Made by a program: the position numbers and the translations under genes. The notes under the pieces were generated by a model. That model saw only the letters and a program-made list of their open reading frames with translations. It had not been told where the DNA came from and ran no database searches. A DNA stretch of 64,000 bases, from positions 214,900-278,899 of the forward strand of contig QPMI01000545.1 in NCBI GenBank assembly GCA_004431415.1. Direction: 5' to 3'. The stretch comes from Cyanophora paradoxa CCMP329. Taxonomy: Eukaryota > Plantae > Glaucophyta. This document shows positions 23,854 through 64,000 of this stretch, piece by piece. How positions within the stretch are numbered: the first letter of the stretch is position 1; each line of letters opens with the position of its first letter.

Positions 23854-26000
23854 ATGGCGCTGGCGGTAGATATCGGAGGCAGCCTAGCAAAGCTCGTGTA
23901 CTTCGAGCCCCGCGCCAGCGGCTCTTCGAACGACAAGCTCGATCTTGAGGTACGCAACGGCGACTGGGCAGCGCTCGTCGGCGGGGAGAAAAGCAAAGAC
24001 GTCAAGCCCGGTGCGCTTAACTTCCACGTCCTGAGATGCGCCCCCGCCCGCTGACGGGCCTCTGTACGAACCGACAGCGAGCTCGGGCTCCCGGGGCCCT
24101 CAGACGGCGGGCAAGCGGAGCGTCAGCACGGATTACGGGCGCCTTCATTTCCTGAAGTTTGAGACACGAAACATCGTTGAATGCATCAAATGGGTCGGTG
24201 CGTACTCCGGCGCGCGCCCGCTCGCGATATCCGCTAGGGACGAGCGCCGCGCGGGGAGCGCGCCGCCGCGCGGCCCGCCGCCTCTTTCTCCGCGCGCCCC
24301 GCGCCTCTTATCGGTGCCCTGTCCGCACACGGCGGCGGCCGGACCGCAGACAAGACGCTGACGGAGCTAGAAGAGAACATGCAGACCAAGCCGGCGCAAC
24401 GCGTGGTTTACGCGACTGGCGGCGGCGCTTTCAAGTATGCAAAACTCTTCCAAGAGCTCGCGAACATATCGCTAAAGAAGGTGGACGAGATGGAGGTGCG
24501 GCGCGCGCGCGCGCGCGTCTCGCGTGCTTGCGGCGTCCAGGAACCCGCCGTCTGACGCGGCACCGCGCGCAGAGCATCATCACCGGTCTCAACTACCTCT
24601 TGAAGCACGTGGAGGACGAGTCCTTCGTCTTCATGTCTGCGCTGAATAAAAAGAACCCCAAGATCTACGCCTCCCTCTCCGTGCGCGCAGGCCTCCCCGT
24701 CGCTCGCCCGAGCCGCGTCGCTGATTTCTCTCGCAGGAAAACCCTTTTCCCTACCTCATCGCCCACATCGGCAGCGGCGTCTCCATAATACGAGTGCCTT
24801 TCCCCCTCTTTTCTTTCTTTTCTTCTTCCTCTGCTCACGCCCCCGCAGGTCGACAGCGAGCACCAGTTCGAGCGCGTCAGCGGCACGAGCATAGGCGGCG
24901 GTGCGAAGAAGCTTTGCGCCAGCGCGCGGCGCCCTCGCCCGGGGCGCGCCTCACTTCGCCTCCCGCCGGCGCAGGCACCTTCCTGGGGCTCTGTCAGCTC
25001 CTCACCAACTGCCAGAACTTCGACGACCTCCTCAAGCTCTCCGCGAAGGGTGCGCGCGCGACCCCGCCCCGCCCCGCCTCCCGCGCCCCGCCGCGCCCCG
25101 CCCGAGGCGCAGCCGGCAGGGGACAACACGCGGGTGGACATGCTGGTGGGGGACATCTACGGGACGGACTACTCGCGGGTCGGGCTGCGGGCGGACACCA
25201 TCGCGTCCAGCTTCGGGAAGGTCCTCATGCGGCCCGGGCACCAGGGTCTCCCCGGCCTCTTCGGGCGCACCCTCCGCCGCACCGTCGGCCTCTGGATCGA
25301 CTTCCTCCGCCAGGCCCGCACCCCGCCCCCGCCCCCGCCCTCGCTCGCGAGCGAGCGAGCCGGCGGGCGCAGGTCCCGTTCGTGAGGCGGTTCGTGCCGG
25401 GCGTGCCGGGGGCCTCGTGCGGCTGCTGCAACGCGTGCGACCACTTCCGGAGCGAGGACATCGCCATGGGCCTCCTCCGCATGGTCTCCAACAACATAGC
25501 GCAGGTGCCCGGGCCCGCGCGCCCCGCCCCGCCCCGCGCCTTCCTTCCGCCTCCGCTCAGATCAGATCGGACCAGATCGCGTACCTGAACGCGCTGCGGT
25601 TCGGCCTGAACCGCATCTACTTCGGGGGCCACTTCATAAGGGACCACCGGTACACGATGGACACCATCTCGTACGGCGTCAACTTCTGGAGCAAGGGCGA
25701 GGTCAGGGCCCTCTTTGCTCTTGGCTTACTGCAGCTTTATCCCCCCTTAGCTTATCGAAGCTTTACTGGAGCTTATTTCTCTTGGCTCACTGAAGCTTTA
25801 TCCCCCCTTAGCTTATCAAAGCTTTACTGGAGCTTATTTCTCTTGGCTTATTGAAGCTTTGGTCTTACTGTCCGGCCCAGGTCAAGGCGCTCTTCCTGCA
25901 GCACGACGGGTACCTCGGCGCCCTCGGCGCCTTCCTCCACTCGGGCGACGCCGGCCTCCGCGCCTCGGACGCCACGCGGTGCGCGCCCCGACTGGGGTAA
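23854..26000 (+). CDS. PANK: Eukaryotic type II pantothenate kinase (Fumble family), multi-exon
   Basis: Motifs [85 protein letters not shown] and [15 protein letters not shown]. Confidence 0.93.
25718..25860. repeat. Minisatellite of about 61 bp x 2.3 in the last PANK intron
   Basis: Unit ctcttggcttactgcagctttatccccccttagcttatcgaagctttactggagcttattt, repeated with a few substitutions. Confidence 0.8.
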
Positions 26001-26193
26001 TCTGTGAACCAAATATCATATATATGTGGGCCTTTGTGAAGCGTTGAGCTCTCGAGCTTGCCCCTTCGCTGTCAATGTATTGTTAACCCTCGGAGGTTGA
26101 TGAGTCACGCGTTGCGGAGGTTGCATTGTTATATTGCATTCGGGGAGGCACGGGGACTAACACGTCCGACGTACCCCTCGGGGCCTCCGGCCT

Positions 26194-27672
26194 CTAACTA
26201 TGCTCAGACTCTAACTGAATGCTGTACCCCCTCACTGGCCGAAGTGAGACGGTCCCCACTCGAGGTCGGGGTGGGCCATGGGGCCTCCGGCGGGGTACGA
26301 TGCTCCCGCTTGCCAGCTCCATGTACTCCCCCACGGGGTTGTCTTCGTTTGCGAGGTCCCTGTAGTTGCCCTTTACGAGATCCGCCGCCGCTTTGCGCCA
26401 GCGAACGGCCACGTTGTACGTGTTGTCGATGATGTTCTGCACTGTACCTCCATGGGTATTAGGGACGGCCTATAGTCGACCTGTCTCTCACGCAGGTTCA
26501 ATTCCCTTTGGTAGTAATCCACTGCGTCTGGGAGGGCCCTGAGCTCCAACGGGTGCTGGCCGGGTCCGACGAGCTAATGAGCCCGGAGCGTTGCAGCGCG
26601 TTCACAGCCGCCCGCAGCATGATTTTGCCTACCCCCCGCATCGCGTTATTCTGCTCGGGCGTCCCGTACCCCCCTGCGGCCCGTAATCGTTGTAGTAGCT
26701 CTCTATTTCGACTGTGGCCGGGCTAGTACCAACCCGAGGCTGCACAAAGCCGTACAGCCATGCCATAGCGTCGTTGTCCGCGGAGCGGCCGCTCTCGGAG
26801 AGGAAGAGAACACTTCGATTTTGAAGTCCCTCGTCCGCCGGTTGACTCGCGTCATTAGGTTGAGGGGGTAGCGCGCATTGCCGAATTTATCAGGAAAGAG
26901 GCGGTGTAGCTTGAACCATGCTTCCTGATCGCCGTACGACATTCGCTCGCGGCTCGCTGAGAATTTCTACCTGTACCCCTACTCGCGGTCGGGTACTTGT
27001 AGCCGGGCATCAGCCTCGCGCGCTTGCGCATCTCCGCCTCCTCGGGTAGCCAGTTCTTCGGGTCGTTGCTCCACTCCTCCCATTCGCGTATGTCTCGCCC
27101 GACGTCACGTGGGGCGGGGCGTTTATCGGTGGGGCGGGCGGGGCTGGCAGGGCCTGGCGCCGGGGTTGAGGCCCCTGTTCCACGAGTACTCGGGGTACTC
27201 TTCCCAGCCCAGGGGTACCAGATTTGCCGGAATCGGCTCAACTTCGAATTGGGGCTTTTTGGTGTGATACTCATAGTTCGTGACGTACGCCGTCACAGCC
27301 GAGCGCAAGCGCGAGAGGTCGCGCAAATTTACGTCGTCCCATTCCGAGTCCCTTGCCTTCGCGTACCGCTCGAGGATTTGCATGCGAATGTGGTCCGGGA
27401 GGGTCGAGAGTATGCTGAGCTTGGAGCCCAGGGCGAACCAGATGCGCTTGAACTCGTCGATAATCCTGCCCTCGTCGTGGCTCCGGACGTATGAGGCCCC
27501 GCCATAGTTGTAATGGCTGTCCAGCCACCCTGCCCGGCCAGCTCCAGCACCGGCCAGGTTGGCGCTGTCGATTCGGTCGCGAGGCCTGCTCTACCACCCA
27601 GCGTCTAAGGTCCTTGACCTGATCTATGAACTGTGCGATCACGTCCTTGGGCGCTTCCTCTGCATCCGACAT
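26194..27672 (-). CDS. Intronless protein of about 490 aa with a C-terminal GNAT acetyltransferase domain (frameshifted in this sequence)
   Basis: Stitching frames gives MSDAEEAPKDVIAQFIDQVK ... TVEIELLQR..AMRGVGKIMLRAAVNAL..LELRALPDAVDYYQREL. This contains GNAT motif A (RGxGxxL) and motif B (LxLxA..AxxYY). Confidence 0.6.
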
Positions 27673-27722
27673 TTGCAATTGCACACATCAAGAAATTCTA
27701 AACGCTACTGCGAGACCAAGTC

Positions 27723-28387
27723 ATGCATACCGATACAGATTGCGAGACTTGCGAGAACTTGCAACAGGGGAGCGCGGCGTGGCACGCGGCGCGCCGCGAA
27801 AAGCTAACTGCCTCGAACTTTGCGGCTGCGTGCGGCATAAATCCCTGGAAATCCAGGGCCCGCCTCTGGGCGGAGCTAAGCGGCATAGCGGAGGAAAACA
27901 ACTTCGACAACCCTGCGCTAACCTACGGCATGACTATGAGCCCCTCGCGGTCTCTCTCTACAAAACGTCGAACAACAACGTGGACGTGCAACATACTGGA
28001 TTGCACGAACATAAGGAACTGCCCTTCCTGGCGGGCAGCCCGGACGGGCTGATTGGAAGCGATCGTATACTTGAAATAAAATGCCCCTACAAACAAGAAC
28101 TCTACGAAAAGGTCCCAACTTATTACATGCCCCAGCTCCAGGGCCTGCTGGACATAACGGGCCGCGAGTGGGCCGAACTTTTTTGCTTCACTCCTCTGCG
28201 CGTGCAAACGTGGTACGTCAGACGGGACGAGAGGTACATCAAGCTCATGAGGAAGTGCTTACATCTATTTTGGATGCACGTCAAGGAGGGCACGCCGCCC
28301 GAGCCCTACAGCGATCGAATGAAGTCAGAGAACCTCAGCGAGGAGCAGGCGGCGCTGCGCGAGTTTAAGTCGTACGCCCTCCTCTAG
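27723..28387 (+). CDS. YqaJ-like viral recombinase / lambda-type exonuclease, copy 1 (one G missing at about 27927)
   Basis: QGSAAWHAAR..LTAS, SPDG, LEIKCPY and YYMPQLQG. Same as the intact copies except acctacggcatg versus acctacgggcatg. Confidence 0.9.
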
Positions 28388-28508
28388 TGTCCGGACCTTT
28401 CCAATACTCTATATGATTATTGGAGGGTCCGGACACGTCTCTTGGTCAGACTACTTCTGTCCCAGGTCTTTGGAATCTTAATATAAATTTTCCCGGGACC
28501 CGGGACAG
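28387..28508. terminator. Two stem-loops with AT-rich loops between the convergent YqaJ and gene A (repeated in each unit)
   Basis: First: gtgtccggacctttccaata..tattgg(g)agggtccggacac, about 20-bp stem. Second: ctgtcccaggtc..gacccgggacag. Confidence 0.5.
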
Positions 28509-28540
28509 GCTTGGTCGGACTCACCGTAGCTTGGTGTAGC

Positions 28541-31500
28541 TCAGGCCCAGGCCGGGTAGGCGAGTCTGTAATGAATCAGACCGCGCAGGATTTGGTTGAG
28601 CTGCTCGGTGCAGGGGGCGGGAAGGCGAGGCCGCGGAGGCCATAGAGACGTAGCGGAAGGGGTGGGGAGGCGGCCCCTGTTATCCCACATGGCGTCCACT
28701 ATGGCGTTGTGGACCACTTGCTCTGGGAGGGCGGGACGGGCCTGCGCGCACCGTTTCAGGCCCTCAGCAGCCCTCGAAGATGTTGGAGTTGGCGTGCACC
28801 AGCGGGAGGGAGGGCTGGACGGCGGCGGCGAGCCCGGGCCGAGCCCTGGGTGGCGAGGGCCTGCGAGGGCGCCGGCTCCAGCTCCATCTCGAACATACCG
28901 CCCTCGACGTCGACGGTCACGGGCGGCGAGGCCGGGATCGCGCCGGCCTGCTGCGTGGCGGGGACCTGAGCCGAGAAGTTCTCGAGCCGCCACTCGCGGC
29001 AGCCCTGGCACTCACCTGGACGAAGACGGTGCGGTTGGCGACGGGCGGCGTCGGCAGGGCCTGCGCGGGGCGTCACTCACAGAAGCCGAAGGCGCCGGCC
29101 TTGTGGGGCGGGGCGTCGGGGTCGCGGGCGTGCTATAGGCCTCCGAGCCCTCCGATTCAGAGTCACTCACCGGGCTGAGAGGGTGGGGTGAGAAGAGGCC
29201 GAGGCGGGCCTTCTTGGCGGGCAGGAGGTGGGAGCCGTTGAGGGCGCAATCGGCGCCGTGGGCGCACCTCTCTCCGTAGGTGGGCAGAGGGCCGGGGGCG
29301 AGGGCGCCGGAGCCAAGGGCGCCGGAGCCGAGGACGCCGGGGCTGGAGGAGCGGTGAGAGGGGCCGAGGAGGAGAGGAAGGGGAAGGCGCGGGCACCGGC
29401 GCCGGGACGAGGCCCTCCTCCAGCAGCCGCATCTGCGCCTCCTTCGCCTTCTCGTCGATGCGGGCCTCGAACGTCGCCCAGTTGAAGCCGACGGCGTCCG
29501 CCTCCGCCAGCTCGGGGAGGCCGTGCTCGTCGAACGCCAGCGCGGGCCGCCCGCTGAAGCCGAACGGGGCGGGGGCGAGAGCGCGTTGTCCCCGACGCCC
29601 CAGACGGCGCTGAACGCCGCATCGTCCCAGCGCGCCTCCGCCTCCGCCTGGCCCTCGTCCCTTGCCTCGTCCACCTCCTTGGCGGAGAGCGACCCGATCT
29701 TGATGATGGAGGCCTGGATCAGCACAAACTCGCGCTGGAAGAATTGGACGAGCGGGATGGTAACTGCGGGAGAGGGGTGAGCGGGAGAGCGCGGGGCGCA
29801 GGCCAAGGGCGGGGCGCAGGCCAAGGGCGGGGCGGACGCACATTCGATGCCGTAGGCCACCTCCTTGATGTAGCGGCCCCGGCGGCCGATCTCCTTGGCC
29901 AGCATGCTGCACTCCTTGCGCGCCGGGTGGCCGTGGCCCCACTCCATGGCGATCATCGCCTTCGCCAGACGGACGCCCTCGATGTGCCACTCGTCCATCA
30001 GCGCCTCCAGCTTGGCGCAGATGCGCATCCAGAAGAAGACGCGCTTGAGCTTGTCGCGGTCGAATTCGGCGTCGCCGCTCTTGCTGCCCCAGTCGCGCAG
30101 GTCCGTCTCCTCCGCCTTCTTCACCTTCTCGTACCAGCACTTGATCTTCTCCGCCTGGCGCTGGAACTCGTCCGCCCGCGCCGTGAGAACGTCCGACTCC
30201 TCCTGCGCTCCGAGGGCCCGGGGTCAGGGAGGAGAGGCGGGCTAAGCGGGGCGGCGGCGGACCGTGTGCGAGAGCTCGCCGACGATCACGGAGATGGCCG
30301 CCGAGAGGATCTCACGGGCGCGGGCCGGCCCGTTTGGGTGGCCCTCGCGCAGAACCTCCTCCAGCTTCAGCACGGCCGTCCGCGCGAGATCGCGGTGGCG
30401 CTGGCGGGTCTCGTCGCTCCGGCCCTGATCCACGAGAAGCTGGAGCTGGGGCCGCATGCCGGAGTCGCAGACGCTGGCGTACTTCAGAAGGGCCGCGCAG
30501 GAGAGCACCTTCTGCACGCTGACCAGCCAGTACGCGTAGCCCAGCGGGCTCTCCGCGCTCGGGTTCTCCCCGACCTGCGGACGCGACCTTAGCGCGCGCA
30601 GGGGCAGGGGAAAGGGGAAAGGGCGGGCTCTCGCGCACGTAAATGTCATCGGCGCAGGAGAGGAACATGTGATCAACGACGTCGAAGAAGCCGCCGGACG
30701 GGAGCGTGCCGACGCCGTGGTACGCGCCTTGGATGGTCTCGCCGGCGCAGATGCCGGCCTGGACGGTGACGGTGTACTGCGAGGCCGGCGGCCCCTCCTT
30801 CACGTAGACGAAGTTGAGGTCGTACTTCTTGGCGTACGTCGGGTTGATGCGCTTGGTGACGATGACGTAATCGCACCGAACGCCGAGGCCGACGGGCTGG
30901 CCTTCTCCTTCTCCGTCACCGACGCCAGGCACTGATCCCGCGCGATCAAGAGCTGCAGCGGCCCGCGCGTGAGCAAGCGCGGGCACGCGAGCGCAGGGAA
31001 GGGCCCTCACCCCGTGGGCGCCGCCGCTGCCGGATTTGAGGTCCGCGAGGAACTCCTTCTGCTCCGGAGTGCCGGAGAAGATCGCGCGCGGATGGAAATC
31101 GCGATGGAGCGCGATGCTGTTGAAGCAGCCCGCCGCCGCATTGTCGGACATCAGCAACAGCGCCACATCGCCGTGCGTGAAGCCGTACTTCGCCTTCACA
31201 TGCTCCGGCAGCTCGTGAATGCTGTAAGGCACGATCTGCGCGCGGGGCACGCGAGCCGGGGCATGTGAGCCGGGCCGAAGCGGTGCGGGCGAAACCGCGA
31301 ACCTCGTTGAACTTATTCACCGGCGTGAACTGGCCCTTGGTCTTCAAGCGCTTCGGGTGGCCGTCCGTGTTCTGGATCTTCTTCAGCCCGCCGAACGGCT
31401 CGAAGCGCGGCACGCCGGCCGAGTTGAACACGCTATCGCAGGTCATCGCGTTGAGCGCCTCCTCCGCCGACAGGCTGCCGAGATCGCGGGCTATGCTGTC

Positions 31501-31554
31501 CTGCTCGCCGGGCTGCTGCTGCTTCGCGCACGAGCGGAAGGTCGCCGCCTGCAT
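28541..31554 (-). CDS. Gene A: large multi-exon hypothetical protein of the viral element, copy 1
   Basis: Exons MQAATFRS..NKFNE / IVPYSIHEL..GAHG / LLIARDQC..ADDIY / VGENPSAE..ELSHT / EESDVL..YGIE / VTIPLVQFF.., joined by GT..CAG introns (e.g. 31236-31302). The 3' exons are uncertain. Confidence 0.65.
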
Positions 31555-31859
31555 CGCGAGTGTTACTGCCCGCGATGTCTCAACGGATTCCGTTCAACGT
31601 CGTACCCCCGCTGGCTTGTTCCCTCCCCAACTCGCGAAGACTCAGACTTGAAGCCCGCTTCCCCCCCCCTCAAAATGCGTACCCCCCTTGGGCTCGAACC
31701 CCGGTCGGTTTCTCGCTTTTTTTTGACTGCCCAGTCCGGCGATGCAATGCAGGCCGCTCGTTCAAATCGGCTGGGAACTTGGCGCCAGAACCTTCGCAGC
31801 GCGCGCAGCACTCCCAGCAGAGCGCGCGCAGCACCGGCGGCAGCATCGGCGGCAGCAGC

Positions 31860-34714: not shown

Positions 34715-34735
34715 ACGCTACTGCGAGACCAAGTC

Positions 34736-35401
34736 ATGCATACCGATACAGATTGCGAGACTTGCGAGAACTTGCAACAGGGGAGCGCGGCGTGGCACGC
34801 GGCGCGCCGCGAAAAGCTAACTGCCTCGAACTTTGCGGCTGCGTGCGGCATAAATCCCTGGAAATCCAGGGCCCGCCTCTGGGCGGAGCTAAGCGGCATA
34901 GCGGAGGAAAACAACTTCGACAACCCTGCGCTAACCTACGGGCATGACTATGAGCCCCTCGCGGTCTCTCTCTACAAAACGTCGAACAACAACGTGGACG
35001 TGCAACATACTGGATTGCACGAACATAAGGAACTGCCCTTCCTGGCGGGCAGCCCGGACGGGCTGATTGGAAGCGATCGTATACTTGAAATAAAATGCCC
35101 CTACAAACAAGAACTCTACGAAAAGGTCCCAACTTATTACATGCCCCAGCTCCAGGGCCTGCTGGACATAACGGGCCGCGAGTGGGCCGAACTTTTTTGC
35201 TTCACTCCTCTGCGCGTGCAAACGTGGTACGTCAGACGGGACGAGAGGTACATCAAGCTCATGAGGAAGTGCTTACATCTATTTTGGATGCACGTCAAGG
35301 AGGGCACGCCGCCCGAGCCCTACAGCGATCGAATGAAGTCAGAGAACCTCAGCGAGGAGCAGGCGGCGCTGCGCGAGTTTAAGTCGTACGCCCTCCTCTA
35401 G
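34736..35401 (+). CDS. YqaJ-like viral recombinase / lambda-type exonuclease, copy 2
   Basis: Intact 221-aa ORF with W..R..LTAS, G..E, SPDG, EIKCP and YxxQxQ motifs. Confidence 0.93.
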   Translation: MHTDTDCETCENLQQGSAAWHAARREKLTASNFAAACGINPWKSRARLWAELSGIAEENNFDNPALTYGHDYEPLAVSLYKTSNNNVDVQHTGLHEHKELPFLAGSPDGLIGSDRILEIKCPYKQELYEKVPTYYMPQLQGLLDITGREWAELFCFTPLRVQTWYVRRDERYIKLMRKCLHLFWMHVKEGTPPEPYSDRMKSENLSEEQAALREFKSYALL

Positions 35402-35556
35402 TGTCCGGACCTTTCCAATACTCTATATGATTATTGGGAGGGTCCGGACACGTCTCTTGGTCAGACTACTTCTGTCCCAGGTCTTTGGAATCTTAATATA
35501 AATTTTCCCGGGACCCGGGACAGGGCTTGGTCGGACTCACCGTAGCTTGGTGTAGC

Positions 35557-42974: not shown

Positions 42975-42995
42975 ACGCTACTGCGAGACCAAGTC

Positions 42996-49598: not shown

Positions 49599-49752
49599 TG
49601 TCCGGACCTTTCCAATACTCTATATGATTATTGGAGGGTCCGGACACGTCTCTTGGTCAGACTACTTCTGTCCCAGGTCTTTGGAATCTTAATATAAATT
49701 TTCCCGGGACCCGGGACAGGGCTTGGTCGGACTCACCGTAGCTTGGTGTAGC

Positions 49753-52700: not shown

Positions 52701-52763
52701 TATGCTGTCCTGCTCGCCGGGCTGCTGCTGCTTCGCGCACGAGCGGAAGGTCGCCGCCTGCAT
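49753..52763 (-). CDS. Gene A, copy 4
   Basis: Near-identical to 28541-31554, with more homopolymer indels. Confidence 0.6.
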
Positions 52764-53061
52764 CGCGAGTGTTACTGCCCGCGATGTCTCAACGGATTCC
52801 GTTCAACGTCGTACCCCCGCTGGCTTGTTCCCTCCCAACTCGCGAAGACTCAGACTTGAAGCCCGCTTCCCCCCCTCAAAATGCGTACCCCCTTGGGCTC
52901 GAACCCGGTCGGTTTCTCGCTTTTTTTGACTGCCCAGTCCGGCGATGCAATGCAGGCCGCTCGTTCAAATCGGCTGGGAACTTGGCGCCAGAACCTTCGC
53001 AGCGCGCGCAGCACTCCCAGCAGAGCGCGCGCAGCACCGCGGCAGCATCGGCGGCAGCAGC

Positions 53062-56000
53062 ATGTCTCGGCTCGCGCTCCCTCCGGAGATCCCGGCTAAG
53101 CTGGCGAAGAACACGCTGTACGACGTTCTCTGCGTCGGCGACAGCTTCGGCGTCGATTGGACGGTTTTCGAGGCCGGCATCAGCGACCAGGCGAAGGAGG
53201 CGCAGGCGCGTGCGCTGGAGGATGGCATGCAGTTCAGCCCGAGCAGCAAGGATGTGCTGCGCAAGACCGAGCTGGCCGAGCGCAAGCGCAAGCTCGCCGC
53301 GGCGCGGACTTTGAACGCCGAGGGTGCCCCCGGCCCGTCGGTGCAGTTCTCCATCGACTCCGTCCTGTCGCGGCTGCGGCTCGCGGAGGTGCTCGCTGCC
53401 TCTTTCTCCCTCACGCGCCCGGCTCGCAGCGGCTGAGGCGCCGCCGCGCTCGCAGGACGCGGACGTGCGGGCGATGCACGCGGCGCTGAACATGACGGAG
53501 GAGAACTTCGACACGCCGAGCAAGCCGAAGCCCGGGCGCGATTCCGACGCCCGCCGGCTGTTCGCGGCGCAGCGCCTGCGGCTGCTCATGGGCGCCGTGC
53601 CCCGGCACATCGCCAAGGGCGAGTGGCGCACGATTGGCCTGCTGGCGGGCCCGGAGGAGTTCTACTTCAACCGCATGGCGGAGGCGGCCCCGCACCTGCT
53701 CTGGCTGCTGGTGCTCAGCTCGGACCCGGCCTACACGCCCGAGGTGCGCCCCCGGCCGCCCGTGCAGCCGCGGCCGCCCTCCCCGCCGACCCCCGCCGGC
53801 CCGCAGAGGCTGGCGAAGGGCATCATGGGCGTCGAGGCGCGCTGCATCATGCGGAACAGCCGCGCGTTCATCACGCGCCACGAGAGCTCGGCGGTCTGGG
53901 CGAGCGGCCGGACACCGGCGTCCTCACCGACGCCTACGCCATCCGCATCGTGCTGGAGGCGGCCTGCCGGACGTGCCGGACCGCCACGGGCGCCAGGGCA
54001 TCTGCGCCTTCGACCTGGTTCCTGAGTTCGAGGTGCCCGGCGTCACCATCGGCGACCGCGTGCAGGTGCGCCGTTTCTATTTGGATGCTATTTAGATGCT
54101 ATTTAGACTATTTAGATGCCATTTAAACCCCTCGCAGGTCATCCGCCGGTGCTCGATGCCGGACTCGCACGGGCGGCCCATGATCCACGGCGCCGTGAAG
54201 TACGTGGTGCCGCGGCGCACCCTCGCCCTCACCTTCTTCGTCCCGTCTTCGACAAGGCGGCCGCCGCCGCCGCCGCCGCCGCCTCCCGCCCCGCCCATGC
54301 TCGCGGCCGCGGAGTCCTCGGATTCCGACTCGGATTCCGAGGCGGAGCGCGAGGCCGAGGCCGCCGCCGCGGCCCGGGCGCTGGACTTCACGGAGGAGGA
54401 GCTGGAGCGGGCGCGGAGCCTGCCGCGCGCCGGCCAGGCGATGGCCGCGGCCTTCCAGGCGGCGATCGGCGAGGCGACGGCCTCCGCCTCGGCGCCCGGG
54501 CCGGCGGCAGCATGATCACGGCGGAGGGCCTCGCGCGCGCCATGCGCGTGGCCCAGGCCCAGGCCAGGCGAAGGGCAAGGGCAAGGGCAAGGCCGCCTAC
54601 ATCGACCTGCGGTTCGAGGAGGAGGAGGCGGGTGCCCCGGCGGCGCGGCGCGATCTCGGCGAGGAGATGGAGGCGGCGGCCCCAAGGCGGCCGGTGCGCC
54701 CTCCCGCCCCTAATTTCTGAGCCTAGGGCGTTCCAGAGGCGCAAAGGAATGACCCTGCCCACAGAGGAGGAGCTGGAGGCCGAGCGCGAGATGGAGATGG
54801 AGGCCGCGCTGGCGGCGGCGGCGGACGCGAAGGCCTCGCGCGAGCTGGAGGTGGCGGAGGAGTACGCGATGGAGCTGGAGCGCGAGCGCGAGCGCGAGGC
54901 GAGCCCGATGCGGAGCTGGCGGCGACGGTGGAGGCGGGGCGGGGGACACCTTCGAGCCCGAGCCCCCGTCGACGAGTTCTACCCCTCCCGCCCTCCCCTC
55001 CCTCGACGGCGCCCCGCCGCCGCCCATCGAGGAGTTCTCGGACGACGAGCCCGGCGACGCCGGCCCAGGCCGCCCTCGTCTCCCCCCGCCGCCCGCCCGC
55101 CCCGTGCCCCCGCCAGCCCCGCCGCCTCCGACGTCTCCTGGCGCCCGAGCGGCAACCCCTCGGCCTTCAGTCCCTTCCGCCCCTCGCAGCCCTCGCAGCG
55201 CCCGCCGCCCTCCGTCCAGGGTACCCCCTCGCCCGCCCATCCCTCGCCGCCGCGGGCACGCCCGTCGCCACGCCCGCCTCCTCCCTCGGCCACATGCCCC
55301 TCCGCCCCTCCGGCCCCCGCGCCGGCCGCCTCTCCCGCCGGGCCCAGCAGCGGCGCGAGCGCGAGCGGCAGCTGCTGCGCGATCAGCGGGCGGAGGCGGA
55401 GGCGGACCACGACGACGGCCAGGCGTCGGAGAGCGACGGCGAGCCGCCGCGCGCCACCAGGCTGGAGCTGGCGCGGCGGAGCTGGCGGTGCAGCCGCGCG
55501 AGGCGCCCGAGATCGACATGTCCAAGTACGACGACGTGACAACGTACAGCAAGGACAACAAGTCCAAGAAGGAGGCGGCCATTCAGGATGCGCTCCGCCT
55601 CTTCGTCAAGAACAACGTGCGCCCCGCCCCCCTTAGCTGCGCGCCCCGCCCCTTAGAGGCCGGAGGCGGCCGTGGCCCAGCTGCTTAAGGCGCTGGCCCG
55701 AGCCGCTTCGGCCGGTGCGCCCCCCTCCCCGCGTTCGAACCCGCTAACCCCTTTTGCCGGCGCAGCGGATCGTGCGCCAGAGACCCTACGGCCCGAACTC
55801 CCCGCCCACCTTCTACGTCGAGCTCCCGAACCTCTTCGTGTACGACAAGGTCAGCGCGAACAGGCACGCCGGGCGCGGGACGATGAAGGAGGTCATCCAG
55901 CTGCTGGCGATGACCTTCCACAAGACCTACGAGTCCAACCCGGCTCCTTCGAGTTCACCTTCTCGAAGGAGGTGCTCTCGGGCGGACGCGCACGTTCGTG

Positions 56001-58182
56001 GAGGAGTCCCTCCAGCTCGAGGACGTCTGCCCCGAGATGCCCGTCATCCCGGCTTCGCCTTCGCCTGCGACACGCGTGCGCCGCCCGTACCCCTGCGCCC
56101 GCCCGTACCCCCGCCGACGCCCTTGCGCAGATTTCGTGGTGCGGGCGCCGCAGGACAGCACGGGCAGCGCCTGCGTCCTCGTCATGACGCACGAGGAGGC
56201 ACGGGAGCGGTACGCGGGCTACATGAACACCTGCTACATCCAGGGGCGCCTGCCCGCGGGCATCGAGGAGGCGACCGAGACCTGCGACTGGCCCACCGTG
56301 TACGGCATGCTGCACCCTTCATGCCCAACGTCGTCAAGCACCTGGCGGACAACGGCTACGTGACGGCCGACGAGTTCGGCTACGCGGCGGCCGTCCTCTA
56401 CGCCTTCAACCTCGTCGGGCCGTGGAACTTCTGCGACAAGCCCGTCTTCGACCGGGAGCCGCGCGCGGAGATCGAGCCGCCGTCCGAGGGCGCCATGCTG
56501 CAGTACTGCGGCATCATCAAGGGCCAGTCGGGCACAGGCAAGTCGATGGTGACGCAGATCATGACGGAGTGCCTGCCGCCGGGCCGCGTCTGCGTCTACC
56601 GCCCTCCAAGGGCTCGGCCTTCTCGGAGCACGGCGGCGAGGAGGCGATCTGCATGGTGATGGCGGAGGGCCTCGACCCTAAGGCCTGCTCGGAGGAGGAG
56701 CTCAAGATGCGCTCCGGCGACGCCTACTCCCGCAACTTCAAGAACGTCCGCGGCGACGATGTGCGCACCAAGGCGACGCGCAAGGTGCTTGTCATCGTCT
56801 GCAACAGCTTCCCGCAGGTGCGCCCGTTCCCCTGCCCCCTTCCCCTTCCCCGGCGCCCTTTCTCACTTGCCCCGGCGCAGCTCGAGAACCGCATGCTCGA
56901 GTTCTTCGCCCGCGTCGTCCTGATCCCCTCGACCACAAGCCGGCCAAGAAGCGCACCTACCTCCACTCCGACATCCGCGAGAACGAGCTGCCGGCGCTCA
57001 TGGTCGCGGCCTTCACCTTCGCGTGGAAGATCATCCACGCGCTCTCCGACGGCAAGGCCTCCTGCATCCAGGCCTTCGAGCCGGCGTGGCTGCGGGCGCA
57101 GCGCCTCGGCTTCTGGCAGGAGACGGCCTCCTGTCCCTCACCCGCTTCATCATCGCCCACTGCGCCGTCGACCCCACCACCTACGTCGCCGCCCGAACAC
57201 GGAGGGCTACATGACGAGCGTCGCGGGCATCGTCGAGTACATCGCGCGCACGGAGGGCCCGACACCTCCGCCGCCGTCGCGCCGACATCGAGAACGGCCG
57301 GCTGGACGAGACCCTCGCCGGCTTCGGCTCCTGGTGCCGCCCCTACTCCTACAAGCTCGGCGGCGTCTGGCAGACCTACATCCGCGGCATCGTCCCCAAG
57401 GCCCCGCTCTCCCTCGGCGAGAGCCAGCCGGCGCTGGAGGCGATCGCGATCCCCGTCGCCCAGTTCAAGACCCGGCGCCCGACGTCGGCCCTTCCTCGTC
57501 AAGCCCACACCAAGGCAAGGGCAAGCGCACCGCAACTCGGCGCCGGCCTTCCTCCCGCCCAGCCCCCGCCACGGCCCCCAGCAGCGCCCCGGCCAGCAGC
57601 GCATCGACGAGATGCTGCCGCGCCAGGTCCGGCCCGCGTACCCCCGCCTTCCCTCCCGTACCCCCTCCCCCGCCCCCTCCTGATCCAAGGGCAGGGTACC
57701 CCGACGAACGGCGGCGCGGGCCGAGCGGCTACGGGAGCTCGGCCTCCTCCGCGAGCGCCGACGGCCCCAGCCCCCTCCCGGCCCCGGCGCCGTCCTCACC
57801 GCGATCCAGGGCTTCGGGGCCCAGCAGGAGGCCGAGCGGCGGGCGCTGGCGGCGCGCCAGGCGCGCGAGGCGGAGGAGCGGCGCCAGGCCTCTGGGCCCA
57901 GCGCCTGCAGGCCACCATCGCCTTCCGCGCCGAGCTGGACTCCGGCTTCCGCGCCGGCCAGATCGCCGGGGCGGAGGCCTCGGAGCGCTGGCGGGCGTTC
58001 GAGGCGGAGTCGGCGGGCTGGCGAAGGGCCTCGGCTACAGCTACCGGCGCGTGCCCGTGCTCAAGGACTACGCGTCGGCCGCGGCGCGGGAGGCCTCGCG
58101 GGCGGAGATCGACGCGGCGGAGGAGCAGGCGGCGCGCGAGGAGGCCGAGGACAACGCGCGCTTCCGGCACCTGCACCACTGA
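53062..58182 (+). CDS. Gene B full length: Cys/His domain, acidic/Pro-rich linker and D5-like (P4-family) superfamily 3 helicase; intron-containing. May be two genes, the second starting at 54749.
   Basis: Walker A IIKGQSGTGKS (about 56513-56545), Walker B-like ICMVMAE, B' ELK..SGD.Y...FKN, motif C LVIVCNSFP and Arg finger FARVVLIP. Introns at 56076-56130 and 56818-56880. Confidence 0.8.
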
Positions 58183-58230
58183 GGCCCGAGGCGGTATTTT
58201 TTCTCAACCCTCCCTCAATTCGGTCCCGCG

Positions 58231-58414
58231 ATGGCCTTCGAAGCTTATCCTGCCACTACTCGCTAGGAGCGCTGGCCGCGACCCTCACCTGGCTCCTCGG
58301 CGGCACCCCACGGCCTCGGCGGTCATAGGCGTGGCTTCGGCTACGCGCCAAGTCCCTCTACGCCCCGGCGGCGCCTCGCAGGCGGCGGCCGGCATGCGCC
58401 CCGCCGGGCGCTAA
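58231..58414 (+). CDS. Small hydrophobic protein (frameshifted)
   Basis: ATG follows a T-rich spacer. Stitching frames gives ..ALAATLTWLLGG.. Confidence 0.3.
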
Positions 58415-58509
58415 CTTTTCAAAGTTCATTCTCCCCTCCCCCTTTTCCGAGTTCCGAGTCCGTTGGCGTTCCCTTTTAAATTTTCTTCATTCTCGTTACA
58501 CGTTCGAAG

Positions 58510-58984
58510 ATGTCGAGCGCGGTAGAGAAGCTGCTGTGCACCGTGTTCAAATCGGATTCGCGATGCAGCAAGATCGGCGAGGCGGCGAGGGCTAAGGGCG
58601 GGGCGGCGGCGGAGGGCCAGGGTGAAGGCGGCGGATCCCGCGCCGCCGTCGCTGAAAACGATCAAGGGGGCGGGCAAGGGCAGGAGCGTGGGGGCGCTGC
58701 CCTCGTGGCGATCGCGCCGGGGCAGAGGGAGGCGGCGCACGCGGCGACGGCGGCGCTGGCGCGCGGCGGCAGGCGGAGGCCTACCCGTGCCTGGGCCGGG
58801 GGCTGCACCCGCCGGCCGCCGCCCCTACGCCGTGAGCGCCTACTTCGACGAGGCCAACCGGCTGAGCTGCCAGGAGCTGTGCGACAACCGCATGCGGCGC
58901 GCCGTGGACGGGCACCTGCCGCTGCTGGTGGCGCTGGGCGGCTCGCTCCTGATGGTCTGGTACCTGCGCGGCCTGGTCATTTAG
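58510..58984 (+). CDS. Hypothetical protein with a C-terminal TM anchor (frameshifted)
   Basis: MSSAVEKLLCTVFK.. joined to ..LSCQELCDNR..LPLLVALGGSLLMVWYLRGLVI*. Confidence 0.5.
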
Positions 58985-59010
58985 ATAGTTTTTCGAAGTC
59001 TAGGTCAAAG

Positions 59011-59411
59011 ATGGGCTGGGTGGACGCCGTGCTGACCAAGGTCTTCGGACCGAAGAGCGCGCAGCCGCCGCCGAGCTTCAACCTGGCCGCGGCGATCAGC
59101 ACGACGATCGAGCGCAAGAACAACGAGCTCATCCTAAAGAACGACGGCAAGCTTCCCTGGGCCGACGTGGCGCGGGCGCACTCGGCAGCACGCTGACGGG
59201 AATCGATCGGACGGGCGCCGCGGGCGTGAAGGTCGGGCAGGCGGTTGCGGCCGTGCCGGAGCTTGCGATGAAGGGCTGGCACTACGCCAAGATCGCCGCC
59301 GGCGTCGCCGCCGTGCTCCTTGCGATCTGGCTCGCGTGGCAGCTGCGCGGCGCCTACCAGGGCGCGCGCCTGCAGAGCGCCCAGCTCGACTATTTTCTAA
59401 AGGCTAGGTAA
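59011..59411 (+). CDS. Small membrane protein with an N-terminal MG amphipathic helix and a C-terminal TM (frameshifted)
   Basis: MGWVDAVLTKVFG.. joined to ..IAAGVAAVLLAIWLAWQLRG.. Confidence 0.55.
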
Positions 59412-59423
59412 AGCGAGCGAACC

Positions 59424-59797
59424 ATGCGCGGCGGCTCTTCCCCCCGTGTTTCCTTCGCTGAGAACCCGGTGGCGAACGCAGTCGCCCCTACCCCCCTGGA
59501 GCCCGGAGTGAAGCTGGAGCGTGCGAACGCAGTCTCCACCAAGAAGGCCAAGCGCGCGCTGGCGCTGGAGGTCCCGGTCGCGGAGGATACGGAGAAGGTT
59601 GCATTCAACAAGCGCAAGACGTACAAGGCGATACGCGAGGGACAGCTGCTGCCCACGGACTCGGTTCCGGGCTGCCGGGCACCACGGCCGGCGAGCTCCT
59701 AGTGCGCAACCTGCGCCTGCAGTACGTCTCCCGCCTCCGCCGCTCCAAGGCCAAGAAGGCGCGCCTGGACTCGGGCGATAGCAGCTCTAGCTCGTAG
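59424..59797 (+). CDS. Small basic hypothetical protein (frameshift near 59670)
   Basis: MRGGSSPRVSFAENP..FNKRKTYKAIREG, continuing ..ELLVRNLRLQYVSRLRRSKAKKARLDSGDSSSSS*. Confidence 0.5.
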
Positions 59798-59824
59798 GGC
59801 TCTGTACTGTTGTATTCAATGCCT

Positions 59825-60108
59825 TTACCAGTTCCTGTTCCTATCCAGAGCACGACTCGGGTGAAGGGCACGGTCATAGCGAACATGAACTCGGCGAACT
59901 TTGCAAAGTTCATCAGGGTTCCCAGGCGGGGATCCTCCCAGTAGATCGCCTCGCGCAGCGCCTCGTAGACGCGCATGAGGGAGCGCTCGTTCTCCGTCGC
60001 GAAGGCGTCGCCGGGCTCGTCGGGGTCGGGATCCGTGAGCTCGGAGTACTCGTCCGAGCTGCCCGCGCTCTCGGCACCTGCGGCGGGGTCGGGCGAGGGG
60101 TCGGGCAT
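59825..60108 (-). CDS. Small acidic hypothetical protein
   Basis: MPDPSPD..DAFATENERSLMRVYEALREAIYWEDPRLGTLMNFAKFAEFMF. The 3' end is uncertain. Confidence 0.5.
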
Positions 60109-60137
60109 TCTCTACTAGTAGAAGGGCTAGAAAATCA

Positions 60138-60781
60138 CTAGCAATCACGGGCGCCGGAACTCCATCGAGTCGCCGCGCCAGTACTTGTTGCGGAGGCGAG
60201 CAGCTTCATCGGCTCGCCCGTCGAATCGTGCTTCCAGGCCTCGCCGTCCCAGAGGGCCGTGCCGCCGTCCTCTAGCTTGAGGCGGTGGCCCGGCTCGAGC
60301 CGGTTGCCGTCGAGCATGCGGCCGGCCATGAGCGCCAGGTCCCACTCGGTGAGGTTGCGCTGCTCTGCGGGGGTGAGGCCGCGCTCGACGCGCTCGGGCT
60401 GGCGCGCCTCGCGCTCCATGCGGCTGAGGCCTACCAGGAAGAAGATGGGCAACGCAAAGGCCATGAGATCTAGCAGGGCCTCCATTGGGCAAGACTTAGA
60501 AAGGTTCCGGACCAGGCCCGAGAGCTGCGGGCCCAGGCGCCGGGCGGCGTAGTAGAGCGCGGCCGCCGCCGCCGCAAGGATCAGAAGGCGCGGCGGGCCG
60601 CGCGCCGGCTCCTCCAGGGTCAGGTCCACGGTCTCCGGCCCGCGCGCCGGAGCCGCCAGGATCTCGGGCTCGGAGCAGAGGACTTGGGCCCGCGGCGGCG
60701 GCGCTGCTTGGGCGCCGAGGCGGCGGCGGTGAGAAGGTCCTCAGGCTCCTGCTTGATACCTGCGCAATCGGTGAAGTCCAT
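60138..60781 (-). CDS. One or two small membrane-associated hypothetical proteins (ATGs at 60781 and 60485)
   Basis: MDFTDCAG..LLILAAAAAALYYAARR and MEALLDLMAFALPIFFLVGL..ALWDGEAWKH. Confidence 0.45.
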
Positions 60782-60849
60782 GCTTGCTGGGTACCTTGGA
60801 AAATTGTGGGAGGCGTCCGGAGTGTGCGAACGTAGCTCCAATGGGATTT

Positions 60850-61720
60850 GCGTCATTTACGTCCGCGTCATTTACGTCACGGAGTTTGCCGGCGACTCGG
60901 GACTCGGGCCCAACTTCTCCCGGTAAGTTCGAGACTTGAACTCGGCGGGGTACCCCCCGGTGTCCTAGTGTCCTAGTGTCCTAGTGCTACTAGCTAGGTG
61001 GTATCGATATCTAGCTAGCTAGCGCTAGCGCTTGCTTAATTAATTAACCTGAAGGGTCGCGTCATTTACGTCAGCGTCATTTACGTCACGGAGTTTGCCG
61101 GCGACTCGGACTCGGGCCCAACTTCTCCCGGTAAGTTCGAGACTTGAACTCGGCGGGGGTACCCCCGGTGTCCTAGTGTCCTAGTGTCCTAGTGCTACTA
61201 GCTAGGTGGTATCGATATCTAGCTAGCTAGCGCTAGCGCTTGCTTAATTAATTAACCTGAAGGGTCGCGTCATTTACGTCAGCGTCATTTACGTCACGGA
61301 GTTTGCCGGCGACTCGGGACTCGGCCCAACTTCTCCCGGTAAGTTCGTCACGACCAGTAGCTACTAGTACCGCTAGTACTACGTAGTACTACTTAGTACT
61401 ACTTGGTACTACTTAGTACTACTAGCTTAGTACTAGTAGCCACCGATACTGGTACAGCTTTTATAGATTTAAGCATTCATTCAATGTGAATAACGATAAT
61501 AGTAATAATAATAACGATAAGTAATAGGGATACCCTATTTTTCCAAGTCTCGAACTTACCGGGAGAAGTTGGGCCCGAGTCCCGAGTCGCCGGCAAACTC
61601 CGTGACGTAAATGACGCTGACGTAAATGACGCGACCCTTCGGTAACCTCCGCAACCCTTCAGGTAAATGTCAGGTAACTTCAGTTGAGTTAATTAAGCAA
61701 GCGCTAGCTAGCTAGATATC
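60850..61720. repeat. Origin-like locus: about 209-bp tandem repeat x 2.4, a TAGTACTAC/AT-rich spacer, then an inverted copy
   Basis: Units start at 60850, 61059 and 61267 (partial, to 61347). Spacer 61348-61543. Inverted arm 61544-61640, degenerate to 61720. Confidence 0.9.
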
Positions 61721-61979
61721 ACAGCTCTACTTGCCAAGTTGATGGTATCTAGCAGGCCTGCTCCTCCAAGTCTGCACCGCCGCCGCGCCCAGCGCTAGCG
61801 CTAGCTCGATACCGCCTCCGGACTTGATCTCCCTTGGCTCCAGCCACCTGAGGGGCTCAGGCCACCTCCTCCTGGTGAAGCCGGTATCGTTGCTCTTGTC
61901 CAGCTTGAGGTAGCGGTAGGGCGCCGGCGCCGGCCAGTCCGGCCTGTGGCCGCTTGCCTCCTTGGCTATGTCCTTGGGC

Positions 61980-62360
61980 CTACGCGGTCGCAGGTCCGCC
62001 TTGGCCTTCGCCCTCTGCAAGGGGCCCAGCGCCTTGAACTTCGGTGCCTTGGTCGCCGGCAGGGCCTTCGGCTGGGGCTTCACCGCCTTCGGCTGCTGAG
62101 GCCTTAGCTGCTTCGATTTCGGCATACTTCTTGCTCATAAATGAGAAAAGCGCCTCGAAGTCGGCCTTTATCTCCTCCTTGGTCCAGGATGTCACCTGAT
62201 CCGGGTCACCTGAGAACGGCGCATCGAACGCCACGTGGAGCGATTTGCAGGCCTGAGCTATCATTGGCTCGGGCCAGGCCAGCTCGATCAGCTGAAGGTA
62301 GATGTTCAGGCCTTGTCGAGCTTGGCGCCCTGAGAGACTAGCTGGAGATAGCGGCTCCAT
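61980..62360 (-). CDS. Hypothetical protein (may extend to 61727 via a frameshift)
   Basis: 126-aa ORF MEPLSPASL..EEIKADFEALFSFMSKKYAEIE, preceded by attttctaaag. Confidence 0.55.
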   Translation of the reverse strand: MEPLSPASLSGRQARQGLNIYLQLIELAWPEPMIAQACKSLHVAFDAPFSGDPDQVTSWTKEEIKADFEALFSFMSKKYAEIEAAKASAAEGGEAPAEGPAGDQGTEVQGAGPLAEGEGQGGPATA

Positions 62361-62452
62361 GGTACAGCAGAGCTTTAGAAAATGGCGCCAAGTCCAAGTC
62401 CTTTTTTACGGGCGAGGCCTGGGCCGGGGGCCAGGGCCGAGTCCAACTCCGT

Positions 62453-62496
62453 GACGTAAATGACGCTGACGTAAATGACGCGGACGTAAATGACGC
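62453..62496 (+). promoter_or_regulatory. Three tandem GACGTAAATGACGC motifs (CRE/as-1-like)
   Basis: Same 14-mer as in the 60850-61640 locus, with a 15-bp period. Confidence 0.55.
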
Positions 62497-62592
62497 CGAA
62501 TTTTCAAGTTGCCCTCACCTGAAACTCAGCTGAGCGCTCACCTGACCCTCACCTGAACGGCCTCAAAACCGCAGCCCCGCCGCGCCCTCTCC

Positions 62593-62895
62593 TCACACTT
62601 CAAAGCCAAGAGAAATCAAGAATGTGCATCCCACGTACTTCACTGCTGTCTCACCTTCGGCATCTTCGCATACGTCATATACGACGATGAGTTCGACCGA
62701 AACACGTTCTACTTCTGCAAGCTCCTTCGCGACATTTCGTCGGAGCACCGCAAGGGCGATGAGTATGATTGGATTCAACTGCTCCCCCTCAAGAACGAGA
62801 TCGTACTGTGGAGAGAGAAGTGCATTGTAGGCAGGTTCAAGATTAGCTCGATTCGTGTAGCCGTCGTAGAGGATCTGATGGTGAATTGAACACGT
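62593..62895 (-). CDS. Low-GC small hypothetical protein; start not identified
   Basis: ..HQILYDGYTNRANLEPAYNALLSPQYDLVLEG..LNPIILIALAVLRRNVAKELAEVE..LGFEV*. Confidence 0.35.
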   Translation of the reverse strand, partial: TCSIHHQILYDGYTNRANLEPAYNALLSPQYDLVLEGEQLNPIILIALAVLRRNVAKELAEVERVSVELIVVYDVCEDAEGETAVKYVGCTFLISLGFEV

Positions 62896-63003
62896 GTTTT
62901 ACCTGAATCACCTGAGCGCTCACCCGAGGTCAGCTGAAGTCGGGTGGGGCGCCCTTAAATATTTCTAGCGCTAGGCTGAAGCACACTCTAAGCTAACGCA
63001 AAC

Positions 63004-63784
63004 ATGGCCACCGTCCGCAACGCCAACGAGATCGACCCCGCCAAGCTCGCCTTCGAGATCGACGCCACCGCCGCATCAAGGCCAAGTACGACGGCCTGCA
63101 GGGCCTCATGATGTACGCGCCGCCCATGGTCACGATCAACCCGTGCATCAACACAGAGCAAGGCAAGGCGTGGAGCGACGAGAAGAAGGCCTTCGTCATG
63201 GAAGAAAACGGCGGATTTTACACGCTGGACCTCACCGATCTCAGCGCCGTCGACGGCCAGACGAACCCAGCCGCGGACGAGTTCCTCAAGCTGCTGGAGG
63301 CCCTGGACGCGAAATTCTGCGAGTTCGTGCAGCAGAACCAGGCCAAGCTCAAGGTCTCGCCCGCCGCTCCCTCTCCAAGGATCAGATCTCGGTGCTGCAG
63401 ACGCCCAGCGTGCGCATCAAGGTCGACAAGGAGTCGGGCCAGGCCTTCTACAAGTACTCAACATGCGCATCCGCACCCAGACGATGGCGGGCAAGCGCAA
63501 GACCGTGCCCGTCGTCGACATGTCCAACTACCTCATCACCGAGCGCGCCACCATCGGCACCGGAGACCTGGTGGCGGCGCTCATTAAAATCGACACCGCC
63601 TACGCCATCCCCGAGGGCAAGTTCGGCCTCAAAGTGGTCCTTCCTCGCCGTGCAGCAGTGCAAGGTCGGCGCCTTTCGCTTCGCCGGGCGCGCCCCCGAG
63701 CTGGCCTTCAAGCCCTACGACAACGAGGCCGATTTCGAGCCCTACCTAAACCCCGAGTCTATGTACGCAGCCCCCATGCAGTAG
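63004..63784 (+). CDS. OB-fold single-stranded DNA-binding protein of the NCLDV / T7 gp2.5-related type (frameshifted)
   Basis: Stitching frames gives MATVRNANEIDPAKLAF..MYAPPM..YTLDL..EFLKLLEALDAKF..GDLVAALIKIDTAYAIPEGKFGLKWSFLAVQ, plus an acidic/aromatic tail. Confidence 0.7.
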
Positions 63785-63821
63785 CTCGGACGAATAAATT
63801 GTGAATTTTTGGTGCAATTGA

Positions 63822-64000
63822 TTACACGCGTTTACACTCAAGGCCGTTGAACTTGCCGCCCACCGCCCTGGGCTCCGCCGCCGTCGAGGCCGCCGCCTCC
63901 GTCACCTCCTTCATTACCTCCGGGTTCGCTGTTCGCCGCGTGCACCGCCAGCACCGTCTGCACCAGGGCCATCCCCAGGCGCGCCTCGGGCCCCAGGGTC
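63822..64000 (-). CDS. 3' end of a hypothetical viral protein (partial)
   Basis: TLGPEARLGMALVQTVLAVHAANS..EVMKEVTEAAA..GGKFNGL. Confidence 0.4.
   Translation of the reverse strand, partial: PWGPRRAWGWPWCRRCWRCTRRTANPEVMKEVTEAAASTAAEPRAVGGKFNGLECKRV

Follow-up and report, generated by a model that had tools for sequence, protein, structure and literature searches.

The stretch analysed here, hereafter the window, comprises 64,000 nt from the freshwater glaucophyte alga Cyanophora paradoxa CCMP329 (GCA_004431415.1, QPMI01000545.1:214,900–278,899). Host DNA, which has 69% GC and is dense in introns, makes up bases 1–25,990, and the rest of the window is a virus-like element with genes for a YqaJ exonuclease, a D5-type helicase and a single-stranded DNA-binding protein (SSB). 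The host genes were judged by eye (leucine-rich repeat, armadillo-repeat, SHIPPO-like), and only the pantothenate kinase gene (PANK/Fumble; 23853–25977, plus strand) was checked against a library (Pfam PF03630, E 3e-6). Its approximate exon model has 11 visible exons, the last at 25881–25977, and the intron beginning after 25,977 is truncated near 25,990–26,015, which is our estimate of the boundary within the junction region (25978–26044). A preliminary description, made from the sequence alone, had placed a switch of organisation right after PANK, in agreement with this result. Two PANK RNA contigs, 1,903 and 1,926 nt long, begin near 23700 and show no read-through into the element; since they exceed the visible exons (about 1,408 nt in sum) by about 500 nt, they suggest more PANK exons on the far side of the element, and the gene is likely interrupted in the intron after exon 25881–25977. 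The PANK intron at 25703–25880 differs from its neighbours by an AT-richer tandem repeat inside it (86 nt, 93% identical), and one DNA contig breaks there.

The stretch is contained in 20 of the 24 listed sequencing runs, all under one organism code, 14 of them DNA-like (0.76–0.78 of words) and six RNA-like (0.38–0.42). In DNA run X7, a contig of 4,215 nt (depth 68.7, 0 differences) spans 23700–26044 and joins PANK to the element, whereas the matching contig of run X1 ends at 25787, inside the intronic repeat, and gives no bridge. The link between host and element assumed in the preliminary description is thus provided by a short-read contig at single-copy depth in one of the two DNA runs compared, with an overlap into the element of 30–50 nt, depending on the true boundary.

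Within the element, self-alignment revealed four tandem partial copies of a 6.6-kb unit (27688–34268), which together occupy 27688–55453. Without this redundancy the element amounts to 16,823 nt in the window, matching the roughly 17 kb estimated earlier. The six copy pairs of the array differ by 0–7 substitution calls, for the most part due to exchanged adjacent bases or to effects at junctions, and by 3–56 indels, of which almost all lie in homopolymers. The missing bases are present in short-read contigs, and what look like frameshifts are consequently single-base homopolymer errors of the assembly. Two array junctions each occur twice, and two hold templated inserts, one of 18 nt from 28,561 and one of 61 nt copied exactly from 30,490. 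Templated inserts of this kind are a signature of microhomology-mediated template switching during real repair, and for this reason the fourfold array is taken as real and not as a product of the assembler. Alternatively, the contig could be chimeric or misassembled, in which case host DNA would be joined to that of a free virus from the culture and the assembler would have made up the tandem copies. The bridge of just 30–50 nt in a single run would suit this idea, as would the absence of the tandem junctions among the short-read contig joints listed; however, the bridging contig shows no differences at host depth, gene models of the element occur on at least 38 contigs, and templated inserts together with two recurrent junctions are generally hard for an assembler to generate. 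We regard such an artefact as hardly credible.

The YqaJ/PDDEXK exonuclease gene lies at 27720–28387 (plus strand), where an assembly error shifts the frame of the first copy. Copies with an intact frame, 221 aa long, start at 34736, 42996 and 48933, and the copy at 34736–35401 matched PF09588 with E 6e-30, confirming the exonuclease of the preliminary description. Gene C (28700–31554, minus strand, approximate 3′ end) is a large ORFan with at least five GT-AG introns; it had no family match in Pfam, PHROGs or NCBIfam and no gamadvirus match, a large-database search not having been made. Gene B is complete at 53062–58182 (plus strand; about 1,440 aa), and its partial copies start at 31860, 38890, 40134 and 47146. 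Models of this gene occur on seven contigs, one of them uninterrupted (P0082, 1,438 aa). Its product combines an N-terminal orphan domain with a Cys/His cluster, a low-complexity linker and a C-terminal D5-type superfamily 3 (SF3) helicase, in which a Walker A motif (GQSGTGKS) and a motif-C-like VIVCN are visible. The helicase region of model P0085 reached an Atlas score of 0.95 to DUF5906/D5 clusters, so that the SF3 D5-like helicase recognised at first holds; it also matched a phage primase family (E 0.0023), and no primase domain was detected. An Atlas search with the N-terminus gave nothing (best 0.76), searches of PDB sequences with P0085 and with the SSB profile returned no significant match, and the single-sequence AlphaFold model of P0085 (predicted local distance difference test, pLDDT, 38) was too low for use. 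A word-based search of longer proteins with the 92-aa helicase core came back empty, which is uninformative since matching models exist. One predicted intron of gene B (32866–32938) stands out among the GC-rich introns by an AT-rich tandem repeat of 11 nt (GCTATTTAGAT-like).

The right part of the element carries an intronless gene (63004–63784, plus strand; 260 aa in intact copies) for an OB-fold SSB of the T7 gp2.5/African swine fever virus (ASFV) CP312R type. Its structure model (pLDDT 73.5) matched ASFV CP312R with E 4e-6 and T7 gp2.5 with E 3e-5, a fold search that upheld the earlier assignment; the 50 listed BFVD matches share 6–16% identity with it, and the named ones are mostly giant viruses. 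A small ORFan upstream (62623–62889, plus strand) is found in other copies, too (fused models P0095 and P0104). At 63822–64000 (minus strand) lies the 3′ end of a DUF5767 protein gene that runs off the window. The window's last 23 codons matched the C-terminal DUF5767/Mriya_48 motif of the gamadvirus profile with E 7e-4 among 922 segments, the best reversed control being 0.028. Judging from gene order, this would be a Mriya_48 envelope-type protein, and owing to the match at the window end virion genes plausibly continue to the right.

Three runs (X15, X17 and X18; two study codes), none recorded as RNA, were judged to be RNA by their intron-skipping contigs. Contigs from runs of the two studies skip eight introns in genes B and C: three of gene C (29764–29841, 30203–30262 and 30575–30638; two of them in X15 as well as X18, the third in X18), the 5′ intron of gene B (32187–32253 in the first copy; X15) and four in the helicase part (55617–55765, 56076–56130, 56818–56880 and 57627–57694; X15, X17 and X18). 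The four tabulated helicase splice joints have a depth of 0 in DNA run X7. All eight introns are of the GT-AG type and 55–149 nt long, most with host-like GTGCGC...GCAG ends. DNA contigs with depths of 1,700–2,800 cross several of them unspliced (e.g., 29,320–30,956 at depth 2,815), and as contigs of multi-copy depth keep the introns, many copies have these in common, and they date either from before the spread or from the time of it. RNA contigs also cover YqaJ and SSB, here with no skips, and one unspliced RNA contig spans 63001–63830. The preliminary description had missed the spliceosomal introns of the two large genes, the fourfold array and the homopolymer frameshifts.

Among the contigs listed, element contigs reached depths of 1,558–4,330 in run X1 (host 91.4) and 1,096–3,926 in run X7 (host 68.7), i.e., 16–57 times the host value over the two runs, contig depth being a rough proxy of copy number. 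A search with SSB retrieved 46 gene models, which fall into 20 EukProt clusters and for which at least 38 contigs are named, and nine SSB copies of 260–264 aa are 97–99% identical to P0096. YqaJ shows 92% identity to a C. paradoxa model, and its listed matches include 14 EukProt accessions; for at least nine of these 14, an SSB model lies within 7–14 gene numbers, a lower bound for which 15 of the 22 members of the largest SSB cluster were included. The module is hence repeated as a block, and the host, judged from these models alone, is C. paradoxa or a species very near to it. The element belongs to a young family of dozens of near-identical chromosomal copies, and as the gene-model count is of the same order as the depth ratio, episomal amplification is not needed to account for the depth values. 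Relatives outside EukProt were found for YqaJ (P0002, 64%; ENA) and SSB (P0099 and P0101, 88% and 70%; ENA and Logan contigs). IMG/VR contained no close relative: YqaJ led to one phage-like locus at 27% identity and the P0101 SSB to none.

Such a family could also represent a virus-derived selfish element that forms no particles, in which one ancient insertion gained host introns and was multiplied by its own helicase, SSB and exonuclease or by segmental duplication. The host-like intron borders and the GC content of the large genes (70–74%, near the 69% of the host) are in line with this, as is the depth of the helicase core, which reaches about half the value of gene C and points to many copies with deletions. 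Many gene models in the EukProt set are truncated, which fits decay but is also expected from the homopolymer errors of the assembly. On the other hand, a virion-associated gene (DUF5767) is still present at the window end, and relatives exist outside EukProt. We consider a particle-less element rather improbable.

Reference loci for placing the element were reached in IMG/VR via a 40%-identical YqaJ relative. They carry an NCLDV-type (nucleocytoplasmic large DNA virus) major capsid protein (MCP), A32, VLTF3, A22 resolvase and DUF5767, and were called gamadviruses based on the gene order given for Pleurochrysis virus 2 in Table 1 of PMC11253617. Profiles were built from 44 gamadvirus loci, with L011, L014 and L031 left out of all comparisons. 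They matched YqaJ (5e-31), SSB fragments (1.5e-7) and the open reading frame (ORF) at the window end (7e-4), and a full SSB copy matched the gamadvirus SSB profile (T7-type PEV_26) with E 1e-27, 26–32% identity and 22 invariant columns over 31 rows. The 1,438-aa protein, with its orphan N-terminus and C-terminal SF3 domain, agrees with the published domain layout of gamadvirus helicases; in Mriyaviricetes, an SF3 or SF2 helicase forms the C-terminal portion of a large multidomain protein. A metagenome scan with YqaJ (best 80 of 179 loci, top identity 44%) mixed phage-like and mriyavirus-like contigs in its best rows, and best-match context accordingly gives YqaJ no class. Taken together, the positive matches point to nucleocytoviruses, and the element is probably mriyavirus-related, a placement derived from the visible half, the predicted capsid half lying outside the window. 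In the same comparisons, the metagenome loci L119–L130 showed matches to Mriya_1, Mriya_51, Mriya_48 and YqaJ, while SSB, ATPase and capsid genes are not beside them in the available stretches; they are possibly rearranged or reduced gamadvirus derivatives.

As described for the Gamadviridae in PMC11253617 (Mriyaviricetes; endemic viruses of Pleurochrysis sp.), the element encodes a T7-type SSB (PEV_26), a YqaJ-like PDDEXK protein, a Mriya_48/DUF5767-type gene and a large SF3 protein with an orphan N-terminus. Mriyaviricetes, with genomes of 35–45 kb, have no DNA or RNA polymerase, and neither was found in the visible part of the element (Pfam, PHROGs); dependence on the nucleus is predicted for both. 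In contrast to the Gamadviridae, the element is integrated in dozens of copies, has spliceosomal introns and an internal repeat zone and follows another gene order; its YqaJ and SSB fall outside the sampled clades and its helicase is not alignable. Mriyaviruses are described as the smallest kin of giant viruses and proposed to be nearer than any other living group to the ancestor of giant viruses, their nuclear replication having been deduced from missing genes only (PMC11253617).

Several observations weigh against this placement and against the family as drawn here. Phylogenies, suggested as a check in the preliminary description, put YqaJ and SSB outside the sampled gamadvirus clades: YqaJ and one ENA relative group together in a clade of their own (100), apart from that of the gamadviruses (95) and without resolution among phage-like rows, and the SSB clade is split by a long branch from all 30 gamadvirus rows in a tree that had no outgroup. 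For the YqaJ tree, 167 rows were reduced to 115 at 80% identity and matches of <110 profile positions were dropped; no yaravirus rows were identified. The helicase gave an hhalign probability of <1% against two putative gamadvirus helicases, its core was not found in the two gamadvirus records searched, and a search of 1.84 billion representatives brought up no homolog of the N-terminal domain of gene B outside C. paradoxa. The gamadvirus block PDDEXK-PEV_27-SSB-ATPase-VLTF3-minor capsid protein does not occur here: YqaJ and SSB are kept apart by genes C and B and the repeat zone, SSB has no adjoining ATPase, and the DUF5767 gene follows SSB on the opposite strand. Searching the visible 16.8 kb with gamadvirus profiles yielded no MCP, A32 ATPase, VLTF2/3, RuvC or minor capsid protein, and the DUF5767 match covers 23 residues only. 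Further, the EukProt models may derive from the assembly that the window is taken from and would then not be independent, contig depth is only a rough stand-in for copy number, and the RNA contigs carry some substitutions relative to the window, so that transcription is shown for the family and not for the locus in the window. Neither particles nor an episome nor an empty site were observed.

No HUH endonuclease was detected in the visible 16.8 kb with the HUH and HUH_long profiles, and no RVE integrase or tyrosine recombinase (YR) in the visible part with Pfam, PHROGs and NCBIfam. Mirusviruses have an HK97 capsid; the window contained no Pfam or PHROG match to a Mirusviricota HK97 capsid, terminase or portal, a dedicated profile search not having been made. 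The question of an integrase bears on a further alternative, in which the element is an integrase-bearing relative of mriyaviruses of polinton-like virus (PLV) size, spreading by polinton-like transposition with a retroviral-type (RVE) or YR integrase encoded in its right half. The endogenous viruses termed Zora/VC102, VC218, VC134 and “NCLDV-dwarf-like” are small viruses with Mriya48, the first three groups often having an RVE or YR integrase as well, while mriyaviruses lack integration genes (bioRxiv 10.64898/2026.06.19.733378). The Mriya48 gene thus also occurs in PLV-sized relatives, which takes weight from the DUF5767 match, and dozens of young copies would suit an active integrase. However, the three groups have genomes of 20–30 kb, and 16.8 kb without a capsid gene imply a genome above this range; moreover, the SSB resembles the gamadvirus PEV_26 type. 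We hold this alternative to be unlikely.

The reading that we favour, and consider fairly likely, is that Cyanophora carries dozens of spliced, transcribed copies, the element among them, of an integrated small nucleus-dependent nucleocytovirus in or beside Mriyaviricetes, whose introns predate its spread. The integrated small double-stranded DNA virus of the preliminary description thereby retains its place in the mriyavirus neighbourhood (SSB E 1e-27, DUF5767 end); what had been described as a lone insertion belongs to a set of dozens of copies that are transcribed and spliced. Starting from the splicing, copy number and gene identities reported above, we infer the replication mode, the integration route and particle production as follows. 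Host RNA polymerase II and the spliceosome would express the element genes, and the SF3 helicase, SSB and YqaJ could run a strand-displacement or recombination-dependent replication on a host DNA polymerase, presumably starting in the repeat zone at 60.85–62.5 kb. New copies might enter chromosomes via recombination or end-joining and not through a dedicated integrase, of which the visible 16.8 kb show none. In the copy seen here, template-switching repair may have given rise to the fourfold tandem array of partial units and spared one complete copy of every gene; past the window end, to the right of the DUF5767 gene, capsid genes are expected.

A bolder version, which is possible but doubtful, would see in the element a new deep branch of mriyaviruses, i.e., a persistent, intron-rich, multi-copy provirus with spliceosome-dependent replication genes that integrates without a canonical integrase and can still make particles. 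If so, it would to our knowledge be the first virus lineage characterised from glaucophytes.

Among the further features of the element, the repeat zone (60850–62500) comprises 208-nt tandem repeats, inverted arms of 89 nt flanking an AT-rich spacer and 11 copies of TGACGTAAATGACGC, located in direct and inverted repeats, against 0.00 expected in 100 shuffles. With little RNA cover, it is a candidate origin or enhancer; its TGACGTAAATGACGC repeats may resemble ATF/CRE sites and baculovirus hr regions. The 30-nt doublet pattern of the zone had no match in IMG/VR, and the ORF list places two ORFans inside it (61727–62360, minus strand). To its left, a cluster of small ORFs on both strands (58240–60800; hydrophobic, basic and acidic products) is covered by RNA contigs. 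Three minus-strand GT-AG introns at 58960–60150 are spliced in these contigs, two of them antisense to small plus-strand ORFs; splicing of one in X18 deletes a stop and the next start codon, and the X15 contig is unspliced here. The ORF at 59845–60108 (minus strand) weakly resembles a gamadvirus gene adjoining RuvC (hhalign E 0.0013, probability 18%), which we treat as a lead only.

At the left end, ORF fragments without a recognised intron occupy 26194–27590 (minus strand). Three of them (26194–26886) had been read as a GNAT acetyltransferase, an assignment that was not confirmed, as they match no acetyltransferase family in Pfam, PHROGs or NCBIfam; only their RGVGKIML motif would suggest a GNAT, and RNA cover is nearly nil at 26164–26867. 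The left end of the element as seen in the window also departs from the majority copy, the two differing in a segment of 87 nt and in numerous substitutions (26099–26187 and 27042–27545), suggesting subfamilies or recombination at the terminus. In the host part, a stretch between genes (11000–13200) is low in GC (49–58% in 11,001–13,000) and rich in short palindromes (CGTACG, GATATC, TAGTACTA), perhaps a repeat or non-autonomous element in its own right.

Parts of this picture have been anticipated. A recent preprint (bioRxiv 10.1101/2025.04.19.649669) reports Mriyaviricetes-related embedded regions in a Glaucocystophyceae assembly (Fig. 5f) and places glaucophyte-derived sequences in the MCP tree of the class. 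Host class and virus class are the same as here, and these regions quite possibly belong to the same family; in the accessible text, however, introns are explicitly left aside, copy number and expression are not given, and insertions are read as mainly accidental. Giant-virus elements, i.e., virus-derived gene clusters, have likewise been described in C. paradoxa itself (PMC12344493, class not given in the portion seen), but these are methylated and mostly silent, whereas the family studied here yields spliced RNA. Endogenous mriyavirus-type elements are also known in chlorophytes (bioRxiv 10.64898/2026.06.19.733378), and the terms “intron”, “Cyanophora” and “glaucophy” are absent from the text of that preprint as available. 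The lineage is therefore not undescribed in the full sense of the preliminary description, given the glaucophyte mriyavirus regions and the C. paradoxa elements in these two reports; new is its intron-rich, transcribed, recently amplified state. No description of the family as multi-copy, spliced and expressed was found in a literature search that was thin on subscription papers.

Regarding introns, the closest parallel is offered by nuclear mirusviruses (PMC12768974), polymerase-poor, nucleus-dependent protist DNA viruses with short GT-AG introns. They belong, however, to another realm, have much larger genomes and show introns enriched in virion genes, whereas those of the element lie in a replication gene and an ORFan. 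According to the same source, nucleocytoviruses are generally without spliceosomal introns, the exceptions being decaying endogenous elements, pandoraviruses and some chloroviruses. The main text of PMC11253617 contains no occurrence of “intron”, “integrat” or “endogen”, as far as available, and PMC10120064 assumes endogenous viruses to be intron-free. Nuclear nucleocytoviruses are discussed in bioRxiv 10.64898/2026.08.29.747986, bioRxiv 10.64898/2026.07.28.741200 and PMC13768754, whose accessible parts mention no intron-bearing mriyavirus; one of the two 2026 bioRxiv preprints finds it “enigmatic” that introns have not invaded nucleus-dependent nucleocytoviruses, and proposes persistent infection as the condition under which introns gain entry. 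Spliceosomal introns are also mentioned in a preprint on punuiviruses (PMC13692296).

The spliced transcripts described here are direct evidence of expression through the nucleus for this element family. Screens blind to introns would under-call such elements, as illustrated by studies that ignored introns (bioRxiv 10.1101/2025.04.19.649669) or assumed none (PMC10120064). The family further raises the question by which route dozens of young copies arose in a group reportedly without integrases. Finally, with an integrated, intron-rich relative residing in a culturable alga, the idea that persistent infection admits introns becomes testable.

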